From IMG/VR virus record IMGVR_UViG_3300011338_000526: DNA of 64,000 nucleotides. One strand, given 5' to 3'. The stretch comes from a virus. Its lineage: Duplodnaviria; Heunggongvirae; Uroviricota; Caudoviricetes. Shown in pieces: positions 3,889-58,008 of this stretch. Made by a program: the position numbers and the translations under genes. Every line of letters begins with the position of its first letter. Within the stretch, counting starts at the first letter, position 1. The notes beneath the pieces were generated by a model that was not told the DNA's origin, did not search any database, and saw only the letters and a list, made by a program, of their open reading frames with translations.

Positions 3889-6201
3889 ATGGCATATCAA
3901 GTAAGTCCTGGCGTTAACGTTACTGAGATTGATCTAACTACGTCCGTTCCCGGCGTGGCTACTGCAACGGGTGCTGTTGCAGGTATTTTCAACTGGGGTC
4001 CGGTTGGAGAAAGAACTTTAATTCGCGACGAAAACGCTCTTGCTAGCACGTTCGGAAAGCCAACGACTAGCAATTACGAGACGTTCTTCACAGCTGCTAA
4101 CTTCCTAAGCTACGGTTCATCGTTGTATGTTGTTCGTGCTGCTAACACGACTACAGCCGATGCAGCGAACAGTGCTCTTAACGCTGTCGCGAACACAGGA
4201 GCCGTGGTGATTCTAAACGAAGTTGTGAGAAATAGAAACGATTACCTCAACAAAGATGGCACGTTTGATACGGACGGTCTATACATTGCAAAGTATCCTG
4301 GCGCTCTAGGTAACTCGCTCAAAATTTCAGTTTGTGATAGCGTCAACGCTTTCAGTTCAAAAATCGCTTTGAACGGCGCGACTACCGCGAACGGTATCGT
4401 GGGCACGTTTCAGATTCCGATCGGTTCTAATACTGGAACATTCACTTTCTACTCGAGCGGCGTTGTTGGCGCAGCTAACACATTCGCGACGACCGTGGCT
4501 GCTAGATTCGCTGTCGGCGATTTATTGCAAGTCGGTAATTCTTCTATCGGGACTCAAAATCTAAAAATTACGAGCGTTGGAGTTCCGGCTGTTAACGGTT
4601 CTGTTTCGTCTGGATTTACGGTCGGTTTTGATTCGAAGTATAGACTAGCAGCTGATTACGTTGCTAACACAACAGTGAACGCAGCGCCCCCAACTGCGAC
4701 TTTCACCGGAGCGATTACTCTTGCCAACCTTACAATTTCTTCGGCGGTGACGGGTTCCTTTACCGTCGGACAAGTTCTAACAGGTGCAGGCGTTCCTGCA
4801 AATACGGTGATTCTCGGTAACACCTCGCCGACAGTATGGCAGCTTTCTACCTCTATCGCGACCCCTTTGACCGCGACAAATATGTTTGTTTCTTCAACAG
4901 AAGCTTCTAGAAGCTGGGAATACTCTGACTTAGTTGACACTGCCCCAGCGACTTCTTATTACGTAGCAAATTTTGGTAATACAGCAGCCGTCGACACTAT
5001 GCACGTTGTTGTTTCTGATCAGGACGGCAAATTTACTGGAGTTCCCGGTTCTGTGTTGGAAGTGTTTTCTAACGTTTCTCGCGCTACGGATGCAAAGACT
5101 CAAGAAGGCGGTTCTCTGTACTACAAGAACGTAATCAACGACGGTTCTGCATACGTTTGGTTCGCAAACGACCGTGCCGGAGCAGTTTCTAACACAGCGG
5201 CTAACATCGCTAGCTCGTCGAACATAGCGGCTCTCTCGCTGAGTTTCGCCGGTGGAACGGATGGGTTCACTGAATCGACAGCTCCTTTGAATACCCTCGC
5301 TGCAGCTTACGATCTCTTTAAGTCGTCGGAAGAAGTTGATATCTCGCTGATCATGCAAGGTAAGCCCAGAGGCGGCTCAACCGTAGTCGGCGGTCAGTCA
5401 GTGTCCAACTTCCAGCTGGCTAATTACATCATCGACAACATTACCGAATCGCGTAAAGACTGCGTGGCGTTTATCTCTCCGGATGACGCTCTGATTAAGG
5501 CAACTCCTGGAACCGAGTCGACTTCGATCGTCAACTGGTTCGGCGCTGTAAACGATTCTACGTATGCTGTATTCGACTCCGGTTACAAGTACATGTATGA
5601 TCGCTACAACGACGTTTACCGCTATGTTCCGCTGAACGGTGATATTGCCGGTCTGACGGCTAGAACAGAGTTCACGAATGATGCTTGGTGGTCCCCAGCC
5701 GGTTTCAATCGCGGTCAGATCAAGAACCTCATCAAGCTTCGTTACAATCCAACCAAGCCCGATAGAGATTTGCTCTACAAGAACGCAATCAACCCAGTTG
5801 TAACGTTCCCGGGTCAGGGCACCGTCCTGTTCGGCGACAAGACTGGAACAAAGAAGCCTTCTGCTTTCGATAGAATCAACGTGCGTCGCCTGTTCATCAC
5901 TCTTGAAAGAGCGATTGCGCAAGCTTCAAGATTCTCTCTGTTCGAGTTCAACGACGAGTTCACGAGATCACAGTTCAAGAATCTGGTTGTCCCTTATCTT
6001 CGTGACGTTCAGGCGCGTCGTGGCGTTCAGGACTTCTTGGTGGTTTGCGATGCAACAAACAACACGGCTGAAAGAATTGATCGTAACGAGTTCTGGGGTG
6101 ATATCTACATCAAGCCAAATCGTTCAATCAACTTCATCCAGTTGAACTTCGTTGCTGTTAGAACTGGCGTTCAGTTCTCGACCGTCATCGGTCAGTTCTA
6201 A
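3889..6201 (+). CDS. gp18: Tail sheath protein
   Basis: SPGVNVTEIDLT start, YPGALGN, WWSPAGFNRG, FDRINVRRLF, INFIQLNFVA. Confidence 0.97.
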   Translation: MAYQVSPGVNVTEIDLTTSVPGVATATGAVAGIFNWGPVGERTLIRDENALASTFGKPTTSNYETFFTAANFLSYGSSLYVVRAANTTTADAANSALNAVANTGAVVILNEVVRNRNDYLNKDGTFDTDGLYIAKYPGALGNSLKISVCDSVNAFSSKIALNGATTANGIVGTFQIPIGSNTGTFTFYSSGVVGAANTFATTVAARFAVGDLLQVGNSSIGTQNLKITSVGVPAVNGSVSSGFTVGFDSKYRLAADYVANTTVNAAPPTATFTGAITLANLTISSAVTGSFTVGQVLTGAGVPANTVILGNTSPTVWQLSTSIATPLTATNMFVSSTEASRSWEYSDLVDTAPATSYYVANFGNTAAVDTMHVVVSDQDGKFTGVPGSVLEVFSNVSRATDAKTQEGGSLYYKNVINDGSAYVWFANDRAGAVSNTAANIASSSNIAALSLSFAGGTDGFTESTAPLNTLAAAYDLFKSSEEVDISLIMQGKPRGGSTVVGGQSVSNFQLANYIIDNITESRKDCVAFISPDDALIKATPGTESTSIVNWFGAVNDSTYAVFDSGYKYMYDRYNDVYRYVPLNGDIAGLTARTEFTNDAWWSPAGFNRGQIKNLIKLRYNPTKPDRDLLYKNAINPVVTFPGQGTVLFGDKTGTKKPSAFDRINVRRLFITLERAIAQASRFSLFEFNDEFTRSQFKNLVVPYLRDVQARRGVQDFLVVCDATNNTAERIDRNEFWGDIYIKPNRSINFIQLNFVAVRTGVQFSTVIGQF

Positions 6202-38368: not shown

Positions 38369-38471
38369 TCCTGTCGCTAAGGCACTGCGCACTCCGATGT
38401 TTCGGAAGCGCACTGTCGAGAGCCGAGTTGTCTATAACCGTAAGAAGATCAAGGAGAATAACGATGCGTAA
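38340..38471 (+). CDS. Small basic protein
   Basis: RNPVAK.LRTP.FRKR.V...Y.RK; GTG start with GGAG RBS. Confidence 0.55.
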   Translation: MTNRKIRKRNPVAKALRTPMFRKRTVESRVVYNRKKIKENNDA

Positions 38472-38697
38472 TTATCCGAATATGTCTTACTGCGCTTTCG
38501 AAAACACCGAGTCGGCTATCAATCAGCTGATCGGAATGCTTTCGTCTGCTGTGGATGATGATAATCCTCTCGACATGTCGACATACGAGCGTCGTGCCTA
38601 TAATCTGCTTCGTGATGCTATGGAAGTTCTTGCTGATCTTATGGAGGCGTATGACGAGATGGAAGTTTCAGAAGAGCTTCTAGTCGATGAGGATTAA
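38464..38697 (+). CDS. Hypothetical protein
   Basis: NMSYC.FENT motif; AAGGAG RBS. Confidence 0.65.
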   Translation: MRNYPNMSYCAFENTESAINQLIGMLSSAVDDDNPLDMSTYERRAYNLLRDAMEVLADLMEAYDEMEVSEELLVDED

Positions 38698-38869
38698 TAA
38701 AATCCGGAATCAAGTCCGGGGTCAAGTCCCGAGTCAAGTCTGGGGTCAAGTCTCGAGTCAAGTCTGGGATCAAGTCTCGAGTCAAGTCTCGGATCAAGTC
38801 AGGGATCAAGTCTCAGGTCAAGTCAGGCTTCGAGTCTATGACCAAGTCTTCGAAGATTTGACGACTTAA
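38687..38869 (+). CDS. QVxx-repeat mini-protein 1 (12-bp CAAGTC-periodic array)
   Basis: About 12 units of CAAGTC+6 nt; ends QVFEDLTT. Confidence 0.65.
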   Translation: MRINKIRNQVRGQVPSQVWGQVSSQVWDQVSSQVSDQVRDQVSGQVRLRVYDQVFEDLTT

Positions 38870-38939
38870 CAAAATAATTGTTGACTATGTTCTCATTATA
38901 AGTTATAATCCATTTATCGACACAGAAAGGATTTAAATT

Positions 38940-39806
38940 ATGATCTCCGCTCTCACTCAAGCCCAGACCGATATGATCCCTGTTTACCGGGACAGGTGGC
39001 TTAAGATTGGTCTGCGCACCGAGGCTCTTGACTTCAAGCGTGCCAGCGAGGCTCTGAAGCTTTGCTACACCAGCCGTGGTCTGGATGCCCCGGAGAAGAT
39101 TTTGTACGCCACTGGTCCTAAGGACGCGTATAAGATTTACAAGTCTATCAATCCTTCGGGTAGCGTTACGGATTTCATGAATTCCATGATTTACGGTGCG
39201 CATGATAGCTCTTGGTTGAGCTTCTACTCTTATTTCAATGACGTGTGCAATCTGGATCTGTCTGCTACAAGTCCTCTTATCGCCTTCGCGAAGGAAGCGT
39301 GCTGGACGTATGTGGATGCAGAATTCGCGATCATCCAGGAATTTCCGCTGAGCATCAAGTTCGATGATCAGAACCGTCTGCATTGCGAAGATGGTCCTGC
39401 CATTGAGTATCAGGATGGTACCATGGTGTTTGCTTGGCATGGGGTGCGCCTTGATCGTAGCCGCTGGAATTGGATTCTCGATAAGAAGAGCATCCAAGCC
39501 AAGGCTGCTCTTAAGGAAGACAACCTTGAGCTTCGCCGTGTTGCATGCGAAATCCTCGGCTGGGTTCATATCCTCAAGGAGCTGAAGTCTAAGGTGATCG
39601 ATGAGGATGCTGATCCTATGATTGGCACTCTTTTGGAGGTCAACATTCCGGATGTGGGTAAGGAGAAGTTTCTGCGAGTGCTTTGCGGTACTGGTCGTGA
39701 ATTCGCTATCCCGGTTCCGCCGACCGTTAAGACTGCACTTGAAGCCAATGCTTGGACGTATGGTGTTGAGCCCGAGCAGCTGAGGGATTTGGAATTCCGC
39801 ACCTAA
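38940..39806 (+). CDS. DUF6745-like domain protein
   Basis: YGAHD..WL.FY.YF; RLHCEDGPAI.Y.DG...AWHGV; N.E.RR...E..GW; LRV.C.TGREFAI.VPP. Confidence 0.7.
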   Translation: MISALTQAQTDMIPVYRDRWLKIGLRTEALDFKRASEALKLCYTSRGLDAPEKILYATGPKDAYKIYKSINPSGSVTDFMNSMIYGAHDSSWLSFYSYFNDVCNLDLSATSPLIAFAKEACWTYVDAEFAIIQEFPLSIKFDDQNRLHCEDGPAIEYQDGTMVFAWHGVRLDRSRWNWILDKKSIQAKAALKEDNLELRRVACEILGWVHILKELKSKVIDEDADPMIGTLLEVNIPDVGKEKFLRVLCGTGREFAIPVPPTVKTALEANAWTYGVEPEQLRDLEFRT

Positions 39807-39822
39807 TAGGGGATTCTCAAAG

Positions 39823-39930
39823 GTGTTGCGAAACGTGTTGCGACAAATCTATCAAGTCTCGGATCAAGTATGGATTCCAGTCAAGCATCAAGTCTATGAT
39901 CAAGTCGGGGAGGATCTAGATGATAATTAA
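39823..39930 (+). CDS. QVxx-repeat mini-protein 2
   Basis: Manual ORF (GTG) ...QVSDQVWIPVKHQVYDQVGEDLDDN, 35 aa. Confidence 0.45.
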   Translation: MLRNVLRQIYQVSDQVWIPVKHQVYDQVGEDLDDN

Positions 39931-40090
39931 TCAAGTCAGGGATCAAGTCGGGCTTCGAATCCGGGATCAAATCTCGGAACAAGTCTATAACCAAGTCTCG
40001 GGTCAAGTCAAGATTCAAGTCTGGAATCAAGTATGGATTCTAGTCAAGATTCAAGTCTGGAATCAAGTCTTCGAAGATTTAATGACTTAA
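39920..40090 (+). CDS. QVxx-repeat mini-protein 3
   Basis: Manual ORF MIINQVRDQVGLRIRDQISEQVYNQV...QVFEDLMT, 56 aa; GGAGG RBS. Confidence 0.65.
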   Translation: MIINQVRDQVGLRIRDQISEQVYNQVSGQVKIQVWNQVWILVKIQVWNQVFEDLMT

Positions 40091-40161
40091 CAAAATAACT
40101 GTTGACGACAATCGCTTTATAAGCTAGTATACATACATTACCGCAGAAAGGATAATTTACA

Positions 40162-40524
40162 ATGAAGATCGTTCGTAACATGGCTGCTCAGGGTGACTTT
40201 CTTATTCTGCGCATCAAGAATATTCCGGATGGCGTGGTGTCTGTTGCGCCCGAAGATGGAAAGATCATTGTCGCTCATAGCGAAACTGGTCACAATCACG
40301 TGATGGAAGCTACGAGAGTGGAAGCTTTCGAGATTCCTACCGAAAAGTCTAACACTCAGAATGTTGATCTGTATAAGCTGTTCCTCCTGGTTAAGGAAGA
40401 CACTCAGATCGATCACCTGCGTTCTTTTGACGCCCATGAAACTATCATGGTTCCGCCTGGCACGTATGAGATTCGTCGCCAGCGCGAGTACACTGCTGAA
40501 GGCTTTCGTCGAGCCTCTGACTGA
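40162..40524 (+). CDS. QGD/ETGHxH beta-rich protein, typical neighbour of DUF6745 genes
   Basis: AAQGD...VAHSETGHNH...H...H..I.VPPG.YEIRRQREY. Confidence 0.65.
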   Translation: MKIVRNMAAQGDFLILRIKNIPDGVVSVAPEDGKIIVAHSETGHNHVMEATRVEAFEIPTEKSNTQNVDLYKLFLLVKEDTQIDHLRSFDAHETIMVPPGTYEIRRQREYTAEGFRRASD

Positions 40525-40580
40525 GATTTGGTCTTGTTTGTTTAGGCGTAGTGAATTCAATCTTAGCGGTGGAGGTAATT

Positions 40581-40757
40581 GTGTCTAAACGACATGTCCG
40601 AGAACTAGTCCCGAGTCAAGTCTGGGGTCAAGTCTCGAGTCAAGTCCAGAATCAAGTCTCGAGTCAAGTCGGGCGTCAAGTCTGGGATCCAGTCTTGGAT
40701 CAAGTCTATGAGGATCTTGTGTATGATTGGTCGAAACAAATGAAGGAGGCTGAATAG
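40581..40757 (+). CDS. QVxx-repeat mini-protein 4
   Basis: GTG start with GGAGG RBS; ...QVWGQVSSQVQNQVSSQVGRQVWDPVLDQVYEDL... Confidence 0.65.
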   Translation: MSKRHVRELVPSQVWGQVSSQVQNQVSSQVGRQVWDPVLDQVYEDLVYDWSKQMKEAE

Positions 40758-40973: not shown

Positions 40974-41293
40974 AGCTCCTGTTTTGCTCAAACTGCGGTG
41001 ATGTGTTCAGTCTGCGCACCCAACACACTCGACAGTGCGAGTGCGGTGCAGTCTTGGGTCGATATATAGATGATCTGAACGTTGAAGTTATGGGAGACCC
41101 TATCGTCTTGGGATTTGCCAACCAGAGCTTCTTAAATGCAATTCGTATGCAACTAGCTCGTGGCGATTCTCTAGAGACGATGGACTATCCTGGAGGTAAA
41201 GTTGCGAAGGGCAGAACCTTTGAAGCTTTCATCATACCTGAGAGTGCTAAGTCTGTGAAATATATTGATAAGGTTAATGGTAATGGATCGTAG
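40970..41293 (+). CDS. Zn-ribbon hypothetical protein
   Basis: MKLLFCSNCGD...QCECG. Confidence 0.65.
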   Translation: MKLLFCSNCGDVFSLRTQHTRQCECGAVLGRYIDDLNVEVMGDPIVLGFANQSFLNAIRMQLARGDSLETMDYPGGKVAKGRTFEAFIIPESAKSVKYIDKVNGNGS

Positions 41294-42146
41294 AGTTTTT
41301 CTTCTTGCTGCTCCGGCAGTTTTTGCAACTAGCAAGGCTCAGTCTCAGGCTGTTGCTATCACTGGTGCTGGCGCTACATTTCCGGCACCTCTGTATTACT
41401 CTTGGGCTGCTCGTGCTGCTAGAGTTGCAGAACTTCGACTGCGCGTCAATTATCAATCGATCGGTTCTGGTGGCGGTATCAATCAAATCAGAGCCAGGAC
41501 TGTTGACTTTGGTGCCACTGATGCGCCTCTAGCTGATCCGGGAGACATGTATCAATTTCCGACAGTAGAGGGTCGAGTGGTTCCTATTTACAATCTACCC
41601 GGCATCTCTAATCTTAATCTGAATATGTCTTTGATTGTTCAGATGTATCAAGGTCGGATCAATTTTTGGAACGACCCGCAGATTGCGGCACTTAATCCTA
41701 ACGTCAATCTTCCGCGTGTAGCGATTGTGCCTATATACAGGGCTGACGGTTCCGGTACTACTTTCATTTGGACTGGTGGTATGCGCGATTCTAATTCTGG
41801 TTGGACAGATGCTGCAACTTCAATCAGCTGGCCAGTCGGCACTGGTGCCCGAGGCAACGAGGGTGTGTCAAATACAGTCCAGCGAGTTCGAGGTGCTATC
41901 GGCTACGTTGAATATATATATTCTAGAGTCAACAACATTCCGACGGTTGAAGGGTTTGATGCTCCGAGAGGCAAGACTTACATCCTGCTTCCTAAGGAAC
42001 CTAAGAATCGGTCCAATCATGATGCTTGCGTGAGGTTCTTCGAATGGAGTCTTACACATGGTCTCGAAGTGGCTAGGACTATGCATTACCACACTCTTCC
42101 AGAAGAGACTTATGCTGGAATCATTCGAGAACTTAAGAGTATGTGA
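41283..42146 (+). CDS. pstS: Phosphate ABC transporter substrate-binding protein
   Basis: GAGATFP.PLY, NYQSIGSG.GI, DFGATD, YRADGSGTT, G..GNEGV, IGYVEY. Confidence 0.92.
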   Translation: MDRRVFLLAAPAVFATSKAQSQAVAITGAGATFPAPLYYSWAARAARVAELRLRVNYQSIGSGGGINQIRARTVDFGATDAPLADPGDMYQFPTVEGRVVPIYNLPGISNLNLNMSLIVQMYQGRINFWNDPQIAALNPNVNLPRVAIVPIYRADGSGTTFIWTGGMRDSNSGWTDAATSISWPVGTGARGNEGVSNTVQRVRGAIGYVEYIYSRVNNIPTVEGFDAPRGKTYILLPKEPKNRSNHDACVRFFEWSLTHGLEVARTMHYHTLPEETYAGIIRELKSM

Positions 42147-55509: not shown

Positions 55510-58008
55510 ATGTTTTTCTACACTAATGTTTTTGTCAGGGGCGATAAAGTCTATCTACGCGGGTACAAAGATGGGCGTAGGTTTTCTGACGTAATCAACT
55601 ACAAGCCTTACCTCTTCGTACCGTCGGAGGGTAAGACCAGCACAAACTACAAGACACTCACTGGTCGCCCGGTCGTTAAGATGGACTTCGACTCTATTTC
55701 GAGCGCGCGCGATTTCATCAAGCGTTACGAGGAAGTTTCAAACTACGAAATCTTTGGGTTGACTAACTTTCAATACCTCTTCATTCACGATAAGTTCTTT
55801 GGTGAGATGCAATACGACGCATCTCAAATCAACATCATCGGCATCGACATCGAAACTGATTCGTCCGATGGCTTTCCCGACATTGAGAAAGCTGACAAGG
55901 AAGTGACCGCTATCACCCTCAGCCGCAAGGGCGAGAAGGTGCTGCTTGGAATGAAGGACTACAAACCTGCCGATAACGTCGAGTATATTAAGTGCAAGGA
56001 CGAGTGGCATCTTCTCAACAACTTCCTCAAGATCTGGCAGTCCGGTCGTTACCAGCCTGATATCGTGACCGGCTGGAACATCGAGTTCTTCGACATCCCG
56101 TATCTGGTGAACCGTATCACTAACGTCTTGGGCTCGCATGAGGCAAAGAAGCTTTCGCCTTGGGGCGTGCTTGAGGAACGCACGATCGAGATTCGTGGGC
56201 GCGACAACCAGACGTATACTCCTGCTGGTATCAACGTTCTCGATTACCTCAATCTCTATAAGAAGTTCAAGTTTGAGATGCAGGAGAGCTATAAGCTTGA
56301 CTCTATCGCGGAGAAGGAACTCGGCGTAAAGAAGCTTGACTATTCTGAGTACGGTTCGCTTGATGGTCTTTATGTCAACAACCCTCAGAAGTTCTATGAC
56401 TATAACGTTCATGACGTCACGCTGATCGACATGCTCGAGGAGAAGCTCGGGTTCATTGAGCTTGTCATTGCCTTTGCCTATGACGCCAAGGTTAACTATG
56501 GCGACACTATGACGACCGTTCGACCCTGGGACGTGATCATTCACAACTATCTGCTTGATCGTAACATTGTCATCCACCAGTTCAAGAAGTCTCCGAACTA
56601 CGAGAATTTGATCGGCGGATACGTCAAGGAACCGAAGATCGGTATGAACAGGTGGGTTGTTTCATTCGACTTGAACAGCCTCTATCCTCACCTGATCATG
56701 CAGTATAACATCAGCCCCGAGATGATGGTCGGTCGCGAGCAGTACTTTCCTACAGTCGAATCGATCATTGACGGCTACGCAGTCATTGAAGGTCCGGACG
56801 CAGTAGCTGCCAACGGAGTGAAGTTCCGCAAGGACAGTCAGGGGTTCCTGGCTGCGCTGATGGAGAAGATGTATGATGATCGCGCTGCCTATAAGAAAAA
56901 GATGCTAGAGGCGAAACAGAAGCTGGAGACTATTCCGAAGGATCGAACCGAAGAACGCAGATTGATCGGTAACGATATCGCCAGGTATCACAACCTTCAG
57001 CTTGCCAAGAAGATTCAGCTAAACTCAGCCTACGGCGCTCTCGGTAACGAATGGTTCCGTTGGTTCAGCTTTGATATGGCTGAGGCGATCACTATGTCCG
57101 GTCAGCTGTCTATTCGTTGGATCGAACGCAAGATGAATGAGTATCTCAATCGCATTCTAAAGACGACCAAGGTCGACTACGTGATCGCGTCGGATACTGA
57201 CTCTATCTACGTCAACATGGAGCCTATGGTCAAGACGCTTGAGACCGACGACCCGTTGAAGATTGTGGCTGCGATCGACTCGTTCTGCGAGGGTCCGATT
57301 CAGAAGATGATCAACAAGTCGTATGAGGAACTAGCCTCGTACATGAATGCCTATAAGCAGAAGATGATCATGAAGCGAGAGACCATCGCTGACAAGGGCA
57401 TCTGGCGCGGCAAGAAGATGTATATTCTTAACGCCTGGAACGTCGAGGGCGTTCAATATAGCGAACCTCAGCTGAAGATTCAGGGGATTGAGGCTGTTCG
57501 GTCTTCAACGCCAAAGTCTTGCAGGTCTAGCATCAAGGAAGCGATCAAGCTCATCATGAACAGCGATGAGGCAGCAGTCCAGAATTATATTGCTAATTTC
57601 AAGACCAAGTTCATGAGCCTTCCGTTCGAGGAGGTTGCCTTTCCTCGCGGAATGAAGGGTCTTGATAAGTATAAGGATCGGTCCAACATCTACATCAAGG
57701 GAACTCCGATTCATGTCAAGGGCGCTTTGCTCTATAATGATCTGATCACGCGCAAAGGATTGACGCGAAAGTATCAGTTGATCGGCGACGGCGATAAGGT
57801 GAAGTTCGCTTATCTCAAGCTGCCCAACATCTTGAACGACACTGTTATCTCAGTTCTCGAAGATCTTCCGGAAGAGCTCGGCTTACAAAAGTATATCGAC
57901 TATGATATGCAGTTTCAGAAGTGCTTCCTAGATCCGATCAAGTCGATCCTTGAGATCATCGGTTGGGATACAGAACAGCGCAGCAATCTGGAAAGCTTTT
58001 TCGGCTGA
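55510..58008 (+). CDS. gp43: DNA polymerase (family B)
   Basis: DIET exonuclease motif, SFDLNSLYP, KIQLNS.YG, DTDS, KKMY, RSSTP. Confidence 0.98.
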   Translation: MFFYTNVFVRGDKVYLRGYKDGRRFSDVINYKPYLFVPSEGKTSTNYKTLTGRPVVKMDFDSISSARDFIKRYEEVSNYEIFGLTNFQYLFIHDKFFGEMQYDASQINIIGIDIETDSSDGFPDIEKADKEVTAITLSRKGEKVLLGMKDYKPADNVEYIKCKDEWHLLNNFLKIWQSGRYQPDIVTGWNIEFFDIPYLVNRITNVLGSHEAKKLSPWGVLEERTIEIRGRDNQTYTPAGINVLDYLNLYKKFKFEMQESYKLDSIAEKELGVKKLDYSEYGSLDGLYVNNPQKFYDYNVHDVTLIDMLEEKLGFIELVIAFAYDAKVNYGDTMTTVRPWDVIIHNYLLDRNIVIHQFKKSPNYENLIGGYVKEPKIGMNRWVVSFDLNSLYPHLIMQYNISPEMMVGREQYFPTVESIIDGYAVIEGPDAVAANGVKFRKDSQGFLAALMEKMYDDRAAYKKKMLEAKQKLETIPKDRTEERRLIGNDIARYHNLQLAKKIQLNSAYGALGNEWFRWFSFDMAEAITMSGQLSIRWIERKMNEYLNRILKTTKVDYVIASDTDSIYVNMEPMVKTLETDDPLKIVAAIDSFCEGPIQKMINKSYEELASYMNAYKQKMIMKRETIADKGIWRGKKMYILNAWNVEGVQYSEPQLKIQGIEAVRSSTPKSCRSSIKEAIKLIMNSDEAAVQNYIANFKTKFMSLPFEEVAFPRGMKGLDKYKDRSNIYIKGTPIHVKGALLYNDLITRKGLTRKYQLIGDGDKVKFAYLKLPNILNDTVISVLEDLPEELGLQKYIDYDMQFQKCFLDPIKSILEIIGWDTEQRSNLESFFG

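Follow-up and report, generated by a model that had tools for sequence, protein, structure and literature searches.

We analysed a 64,000-nucleotide stretch of phage DNA (IMG/VR record IMGVR_UViG_3300011338_000526; the whole stretch is called the window here), the source of which is an uncultured T4-like myovirus. Around the genes for a DUF6745 protein and its 120-amino-acid (aa) partner, the window carries four short open reading frames (ORFs) built from tandem four-residue repeats, (QVxx)n. We consider it rather probable that these mini-genes are a detached repeat module, a set of exchangeable variable adaptors on a conserved DUF6745/partner module. We infer that such adaptors would serve an early host-directed activity. 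The locus is made up as follows.

38687-38869, + strand: mini-gene 1, 60 aa, 11 QV units, tail QVFEDLTT, ATG start
38940-39806, + strand: DUF6745 protein, 288 aa, insert-less type (Pfam PF20530)
39823-39930, + strand: mini-gene 2, 35 aa, GTG start, 4-5 units, tail QVGEDLDDN
39920-40090, + strand: mini-gene 3, 56 aa, GGGGAGGA before the ATG, tail QVFEDLMT
40162-40524, + strand: DUF6745 partner, 120 aa, all-beta (phrog_27831)
40581-40757, + strand: mini-gene 4, 58 aa from a GTG after GGAGG, tail QVYEDLVYDW...

The mini-genes contain four + strand arrays of 12-base-pair (bp) units, each unit being CAAGTC plus six variable bases, between 38.6 and 40.8 kilobases (kb) (array limits 38711-38848, 39853-39906, 39932-40069 and 40617-40706). 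A search for CAAGTC-N6-CAAGTC with at most one mismatch gave 30 matches, every one on the + strand and within the four arrays, against a mean of 0.23 and a maximum of 2 in the shuffled window. Tandem Repeats Finder reported periods of 12, 24 and 36 on the arrays. Translated as Gln-Val-x-x, every array forms a separate ORF that has both a start and a stop codon. An earlier note on this DNA, made from the letters alone, had described four ORFs of 12-bp CAAGTC units ending in QV(F/G/Y)EDL and flanking a DUF6745-like gene with its usual partner; the coordinates, the strand, the tails and the identity of both neighbours are all confirmed here. The note had also credited three of the ORFs with Shine-Dalgarno sequences, and these range from strong for mini-genes 3 and 4 (GGAGG) to weaker for mini-gene 2 (AGGGGA), mini-gene 1 having no good site. 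The ATG of mini-gene 1 overlaps the stop of the upstream gene at 38464-38697, an overlap that suggests translational coupling. Mini-gene 2 is the least certain of the four, and its end overlaps the start of mini-gene 3. A longer reading of mini-gene 4 is possible from an alternative GTG at 40551, and its stop abuts the ATG of the following gene. Two copies of a different 12-bp unit, AAACGTGTTGCG, lie at the N-terminus of mini-gene 2 (LRNVLRQ, 39819-39843), and this unit may be a diverged leader or a decayed unit.

We scored the coding potential of such arrays in related loci, which comprised 120 IMG/VR stretches with the DNA pattern, 38 loci with DUF6745 relatives, 71 with partner relatives and 27 from bacterial genomes. 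Since repeats of 12 bp are often open in more than one frame, an open frame by itself says little, and all six frames were scored for three features together: no internal stop, an ATG at most 60 nt upstream without an intervening stop, and a stop at most 45 nt downstream. Among 254 distinct stand-alone arrays, the QV frame has all three features in 162, and the other frames in 13, 3, 13, 0 and 1. By this measure, which is one of sequence, the Gln-Val frame is the coding frame of the arrays, and the four window mini-ORFs appear to be real genes for small (QVxx)n proteins.

The stand-alone (QVxx)n family, as defined here, consists of proteins of ~45-80 aa in the QV frame with their own start and stop, a period-4 Q-V/I core and an acidic-hydrophobic C-terminal motif. 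The four window ORFs belong to it by their QV frame and QVxEDL end, mini-gene 2 being short at 35 aa. The lengths of 256 distinct mini-proteins have their mode at 60-63 aa, with 155 falling within 56-71 aa. Their termini are conserved within each phage lineage (N-termini such as MKSVK.., MTVKK.. and MKQVS..; C-termini such as ..DDIQ, ..NDLRK, ..ENLK and ..EDLDD), and an acidic-acidic-Leu/Ile motif is found in the last eight residues of 34 of the 256, as against 1 after shuffling. In one locus (L131 4938-6490, IMGVR_UViG_3300047403_000169), ~11 consecutive mini-genes fill 1.5 kb, each with a MKLKSV start and a QVKTLHQ or QVRTIHR end, and the frame mostly changes from one to the next; gene callers would probably report a single low-complexity repeat or wrong-frame ORFs here. 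A complete 149-kb relative, whose DUF6745 protein is 70% identical, has two mini-gene clusters. The second (L269 1947-3978, minus strand; G005:C1:107446-109477) is interrupted by two unrelated genes, and some of its members with decayed or absent repeats still have MTVK at the start, EDL at the end and ~60 aa in all. Conserved size, conserved termini and the existence of repeat-less members are properties of a protein family. A large-database search with mini-protein 1 gave just three weak unnamed matches. We rejected a pentapeptide-repeat protein (PF00805) as an identity, since the period is four residues (12 bp) and not five, and there is no Pfam match.

The two large genes are conserved proteins in their own right. 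The DUF6745 protein matches PF20530 with an E-value of 3.1e-26 and 92.4 bits (cut-off 27) over profile positions 7-200 of 206, and has the conserved motifs of that family (YGxHD-type, WHG and CGTGR). Residues G86, H148, W166, H167, G168, C249, G250, T251, G252 and R253, which are invariant or nearly so in 36 DUF6745 homologs, are all present in it, and its AlphaFold2 model has a pLDDT of 92.9. The partner matches phrog_27831 with an E-value of 1.4e-9 over 116 of 124 profile positions, and the motifs that are invariant in a 40-sequence alignment (QGD, HSETxHxH, HxR...H(E) and QxE) are all present in the window copy. Its AlphaFold2 model is all-beta with a pLDDT of 77.6, and its invariant His, Glu and Asp clusters suggest a metal site. 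Wherever a related locus is not cut short, the partner nearly always adjoins DUF6745, as it does in a mycobacterial prophage and in the spring-water siphovirus MW202476.

Searches of Pfam, NCBIfam and PADLOC with the partner and with the mini-proteins returned sub-threshold noise only, and a PDB sequence search with DUF6745 and the partner gave nothing meaningful. The best Foldseek matches against the PDB had E-values of 0.24 (partner) and 0.39 (DUF6745), and VIA-align against 48,161 chains reached best Z-scores of 3.3 (partner) and 4.0 (DUF6745), so that no fold is assignable, which is not proof of a new fold. A cupin or double-stranded beta-helix metalloenzyme was considered for the partner, and its structural matches of that kind are all weak (cupin 2, Z 2.2; quercetinase, Z 2.1; ALKBH3, Z 2.4). 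In the ESM Atlas, the partner found unnamed viral clusters only and the window DUF6745 protein found DUF6745 clusters. All members of a Cyanobacteriota cluster there (432 aa) have DUF6745 and 89% also have LRR_4 leucine-rich repeats, which hints that the family combines with binding repeats generally.

In bacteria the pair is found in early or immunity regions of prophages, with genes for ERF, RdgC, an exonuclease and an integrase in a Pseudothauera genome, and with a CI-like repressor directly upstream in a Hwanghaeella genome. These contexts fit a role in host-directed or phage-phage conflict. In the Hwanghaeella locus (Hwanghaeella grinnelliae Gri0909 contig 1, L242 2612-4980), the CI-like repressor (HTH_3 plus peptidase S24), a DUF6745 gene whose insert is degenerate and the partner gene form a small island between host genes for a LysR regulator and a GMC oxidoreductase. 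This island could be either a minimal module complete in itself or what is left of a prophage.

The earlier note had held that many DUF6745 proteins carry such repeats internally just before the YGxHD motif, and this is verified in many members of the family (QVxx, QLxx, SVxx, AATx and AVxx). Several DUF6745 proteins from viral contigs have (QVxx)n immediately before the motif, one of them running ...DQVYRAIYGSHD into it. Mycobacterium phage prophiGD102-1 gp38 (QSM05137.1) has an internal (QLxx)n, and the DUF6745 protein of MW202476 (UOF77368.1) an internal (SSLx)n encoded by AGCAGCCTC; the idea that SSLx is the same DNA read in another frame was rejected on account of this DNA and of the peptide register, which aligns (polar, Leu, variable, Ser). 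Prophage-like regions of diverse bacteria encode QV, QL, SV, AAT, NAT or AV units, or degenerate inserts of up to ~650 aa. The units share a pattern, namely a polar residue, then Val/Leu/Ala, then a hypervariable residue (Trp, Arg, Gly, Tyr, Ser, Glu or Asp), then a small or acidic one. This pattern persists over 39-69% guanine-cytosine content with different codons, which argues that the peptide, and not the DNA, is conserved.

The window DUF6745 protein lacks internal repeats, just as the note had said. It has no insert, and its period-4 self-identity is 0.12, compared with 0.58-0.96 in the fused forms, so it does not have the fused architecture; three degenerate four-residue units (SVTD FMNS MIYG) remain before AHD. 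Following the proposal of a survey of fused and split loci, we classified each distinct DUF6745 gene and counted the loci with stand-alone period-4 mini-ORFs.

Insert-less DUF6745 (the window type): stand-alone mini-ORFs at 27 of 39 loci
DUF6745 with an internal tandem repeat: stand-alone mini-ORFs at 2 of 15 loci
DUF6745 with a non-repetitive insert: stand-alone mini-ORFs at 5 of 23 loci

Insert-less genes differ from those with an internal repeat (Fisher p = 5e-4) and from both insert classes together (p = 9e-6), p-values that overstate independence because the surveyed loci are mutually related. In these sequences the split and fused forms of the repeat are clearly complementary and largely mutually exclusive.

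A multimer prediction, also proposed earlier, places the mini-protein on DUF6745 and not on the partner. Three chains were modelled with custom alignments (DUF6745, the partner and mini-protein 1, the last being the scored chain), and the complex scored 0.82, the best of three controls reaching 0.09. Three runs share at least 94% of contacts, the mini-protein has a pLDDT of at least 80, and its confident contacts are with DUF6745 exclusively. On the mini-protein side the lowest-error pairs involve R47, R49 and Q53 as well as V42, V46, V50, V54 and L58, the last five occupying the constant position in consecutive units and in the tail. On the DUF6745 side they involve L21, G24, L25, Y64, V76, H88 (of YGAHD), W122, I139, I155 and T161-V163, and the model interface takes in the nearly invariant columns W20, G24, Y43, P60, G86, P136 and G168. 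The modelled docking place is the site where fused relatives carry the repeat. The model thus supports, as a prediction, docking of mini-protein 1 onto DUF6745 at the fused-repeat site; we know of no solved complex like it.

These results would fit together as follows. Many DUF6745 proteins carry the repeat module between their N-terminal helical part and YGxHD; in this phage the module would be detached, and its insert-less DUF6745 would receive the repeat in trans from the mini-proteins. A conserved hydrophobic groove of DUF6745 would take up the EDL tail and the invariant Val/Leu ladder of the final repeats, leaving the variable positions exposed. Over 2,247 repeat units, Val occupies the constant second position in 91%, x1 is mostly Trp (24%), Arg (21%), Ser (9%) or Tyr (9%), and x2 is mostly Asp (36%) or Asn (19%). 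Paralogous mini-genes would thereby supply alternative variable surfaces to the module of DUF6745 and the His-rich 120-aa partner. The trans-acting split system put forward earlier is supported in part, by the complementarity of split and fused forms, by the docking model of mini-protein 1 and by a DUF6745 copy without an insert; to call the mini-proteins a 'specificity module', as was done then, is a guess.

Unequal recombination between 12-bp units may reshuffle the mini-genes. The DUF6745 and partner genes of five contigs, which come from different samples, have 100% identical DNA, yet one, two or three in-frame mini-genes lie between them, and the single 66-aa mini-gene joins the first and the last member of the two-gene pair, in frame, into a chimera. 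Recombination between 12-bp units keeps the frame, and such events therefore create new intact genes. The codon usage of the arrays points, as a sequence signature, to DNA-level homogenisation and concerted evolution of the units.

Several points weigh against the reading of the mini-genes as detached adaptors. The variants in the five-contig set (one mini-gene of 66 aa, two of 45 + 58 aa or three of 61 + 33 + 58 aa) were assembled from short reads, and collapse during assembly could have produced them. The codon bias is strong (CAA 34 : CAG 1 and GTC in 35 of 41 Val codons in the window mini-genes; CAA 30 : CAG 62 and GTC in 49 of 209 Val codons in six large window genes), and it is compatible with a constraint on the DNA or RNA. 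In the closest relatives (77-78% identity), the partner gene comes before DUF6745 and the nearest 4 kb around the pair are free of arrays; one of these relatives has arrays ~10 kb from the pair, the others being fragments estimated to be 12-37% complete. In the complete 149-kb relative, the second cluster lies 38 kb from the only DUF6745 gene. Adjacency is thus not obligatory, and the mini-proteins may also work without DUF6745. As for the complex, the mark that it passed is one that 58 of the 80 solved complexes in the calibration reach, along with 2 of the 110 mismatched pairs; these counts hold only roughly here, since three chains and custom alignments were used, unlike in the calibration. 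Its passing may reflect the model's knowledge of fused DUF6745 sequences and not binding in trans, and it covers mini-protein 1, one of the four.

A further-reaching version of the adaptor reading, which we hold to be doubtful, would make the (QVxx)n helices a programmable recognition code with a constant docking face and two variable residues, so that a recombined library of mini-adaptors would steer a novel-fold two-protein machine to changing host proteins or single-stranded nucleic acid. It has its likeness in the repeats of transcription activator-like effectors (TALEs) or PUF proteins, with their constant face and variable residues per unit. Each unit, as in leucine-rich repeats and TALE repeat-variable diresidues, combines a structural position that stays constant with one or two exposed ones that are hypervariable; unlike in these, the unit has only four residues, there is no comparable solved fold and the module can be a separate mini-protein.

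An unlikely alternative is that the mini-proteins are precursor substrates, with a variable repeat core between conserved leader and tail, like those of ribosomally synthesized and post-translationally modified peptides (RiPPs), which DUF6745 would bind and the His-rich partner, a possible metalloenzyme, would modify. Multi-precursor RiPP loci (prochlorosins, split borosins) have tandem short genes with conserved ends and variable cores beside larger conserved proteins. The mini-genes are likewise tandem paralogs with conserved ends and variable cores adjoining two conserved proteins, they too come in fused and split arrangements, the peptide is predicted to bind DUF6745, and the partner has its invariant His, Glu and Asp clusters. 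However, the fused repeat lies within DUF6745 and is not terminal, an arrangement not known from precursors; Pfam, NCBIfam and PADLOC showed no recognised RiPP enzyme, protease or exporter family beside the pair (a novel enzyme is possible), the complex model has no confident contact between mini-protein and partner, and the partner matches no enzyme fold.

We think it improbable that the mini-proteins act on DUF6745 like an antitoxin, regulating or inhibiting it by filling the groove that the internal repeat fills in cis and so restraining or timing an activity that would otherwise be harmful. The predicted docking does cover conserved residues, including His88 of YGAHD, and the pair lies beside a CI-like repressor, ERF, RdgC and integrase in prophage early or immunity regions, where toxin-like and exclusion genes are common. 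Nothing indicates that DUF6745 is toxic, however, and a simple inhibitor has no need of 4 to 20 hypervariable paralogs or of an exposed face that varies; moreover, some relatives have the pair without nearby mini-genes. There is just as small a chance that the mini-proteins have a role that does not involve DUF6745, such as that of decoys aimed at host defence or surface proteins, and share with the internal repeat their ancestry only. The clusters that lie 10 and 38 kb away from the sole DUF6745 gene of two relatives would suit this, as would a variable position rich in Trp, Arg and Tyr, which is typical of binding surfaces. It sits poorly with a distribution complementary to that of the internal repeats and with the constant face of the mini-protein being modelled on conserved DUF6745 residues.

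The arrays also carry signals at the level of DNA. Minus-strand TTGAC occurs 33 times per kb in the arrays versus 1.7 elsewhere, GANTC 33 versus 4.7 (7-fold) and GATC 21 versus 7.2 (3-fold); the last two enrichments arise from x2 codon-CAA junctions or codon pairs and were set aside as the function of the arrays, and that of GANTC could be relevant if the host methylates this site. The earlier note had raised a DNA-level alternative in which the minus strand resembles a run of -35 boxes. The TTGAC runs exist, and the minus strand of the arrays has no good -10 partner for the -35-like boxes; a function for these is unlikely and was rejected because they are not conserved, the likeness being lost in relatives that use CAGGTC, CAGCTC or other codons. 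That the arrays act as DNA or RNA (protein-binding or methylation clusters, minus-strand -35 sinks, or recombination hot spots shuffling early cassettes) with incidental ORFs is very unlikely, for although CAAGTC is near-invariant against the codon preference of the window, TTGAC, GANTC and GATC are enriched, and the arrays recombine, with a duplicated cassette of mini-gene tail and promoter, the ORF hallmarks are confined to one frame of six, peptide termini and size are conserved, the CAGGTC, CAGCTC, AGTGTT and GCCACC units of relatives encode the same peptide repeat and lose TTGAC/GANTC, no good -10 partner is present, and proneness to recombination is general to tandem repeats and compatible with coding.

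The nearest known proteins are the fused ones of prophiGD102-1 and MW202476, both annotated as hypothetical. They share with the window the DUF6745 domain, the adjacent 120-aa partner and four-residue repeats (polar, Val/Leu, variable W/R/G/E, small/acidic) right before a YGxHD-type motif. They differ in that their repeat is an internal segment of 24 to >170 aa, whereas in the window it is spread over four separate genes of ~35-60 aa, each with its own start, stop and EDL tail. Next to the adenine-specific substitution of diversity-generating retroelements, the variation seen here is one of unit number and in-frame chimeras. A literature search on DUF6745 and phage tetrapeptide repeats found nothing relevant and no paper naming DUF6745, and our searches found no described family or fold for the partner or the mini-proteins. 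For the split/fused tetrapeptide architecture, the tandem mini-gene arrays and the docking site we found no earlier description.

The three-part module (DUF6745, the His-rich 120-aa partner and tetrapeptide repeats, either built in or as mini-genes) occurs in ~100 phage contigs and in some two dozen contigs from bacteria, of which a part at least resemble prophages. Should the docking be real, the module would exemplify in nature a protein domain swapped for an interchangeable set of micro-proteins, with recombination-driven diversification of a binding surface without reverse transcriptase (which was not searched for here), and hundreds of 12-bp 'simple repeats' in phages would be genes. The module is small enough for direct experimental testing.

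Both large genes are preceded by promoter-like sequences.

38881-38909, + strand: sigma-70-type promoter TTGACT-N17-TATAAT before DUF6745, 11 of 12 consensus positions
40102-40130, + strand: promoter-like site TTGACG-N17-TAGTAT before the partner gene, 9 of 12 consensus positions

Sigma-70-type promoters recur throughout the small-gene region of the window at 36.8-43.2 kb. The early expression proposed in the earlier note fits promoters of this type before both large genes, as a fit and not a demonstration. A near-identical cassette, at 38844-38935 before DUF6745 and at 40065-40157 before the partner gene, consists of the last repeat unit, the FEDLxT tail, the stop, AACAAAATAA, the TTGAC promoter and the ribosome site CAGAAAGGAT. 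It may have mediated the change of gene order relative to the closest relatives. Mobile early-promoter cassettes (PeSL), which Arbiol and colleagues reportedly described in 2010, are said to shuffle small genes in the hyperplastic regions of T4-type phages. The window resembles them in having a duplicated early-promoter segment before neighbouring small genes and a gene order that differs from the closest relatives; it differs in that its duplicated segment takes in the 3' end of a mini-gene, and in that recombination mostly involves the coding 12-bp array itself.

A blastn search with the locus against 50,697 phage records gave no match. Nearly all long ORFs of the window lie on its + strand, and its DNA polymerase is ~50% identical to cyanomyovirus polymerases. 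Other genes are the following.

3889-6201: tail sheath gene
38464-38697, + strand: upstream acidic protein, 77 aa (phrog_26791 / phrog_8760, function unassigned in phrog)
41265-42146: pstS
55510-58008: DNA polymerase gene

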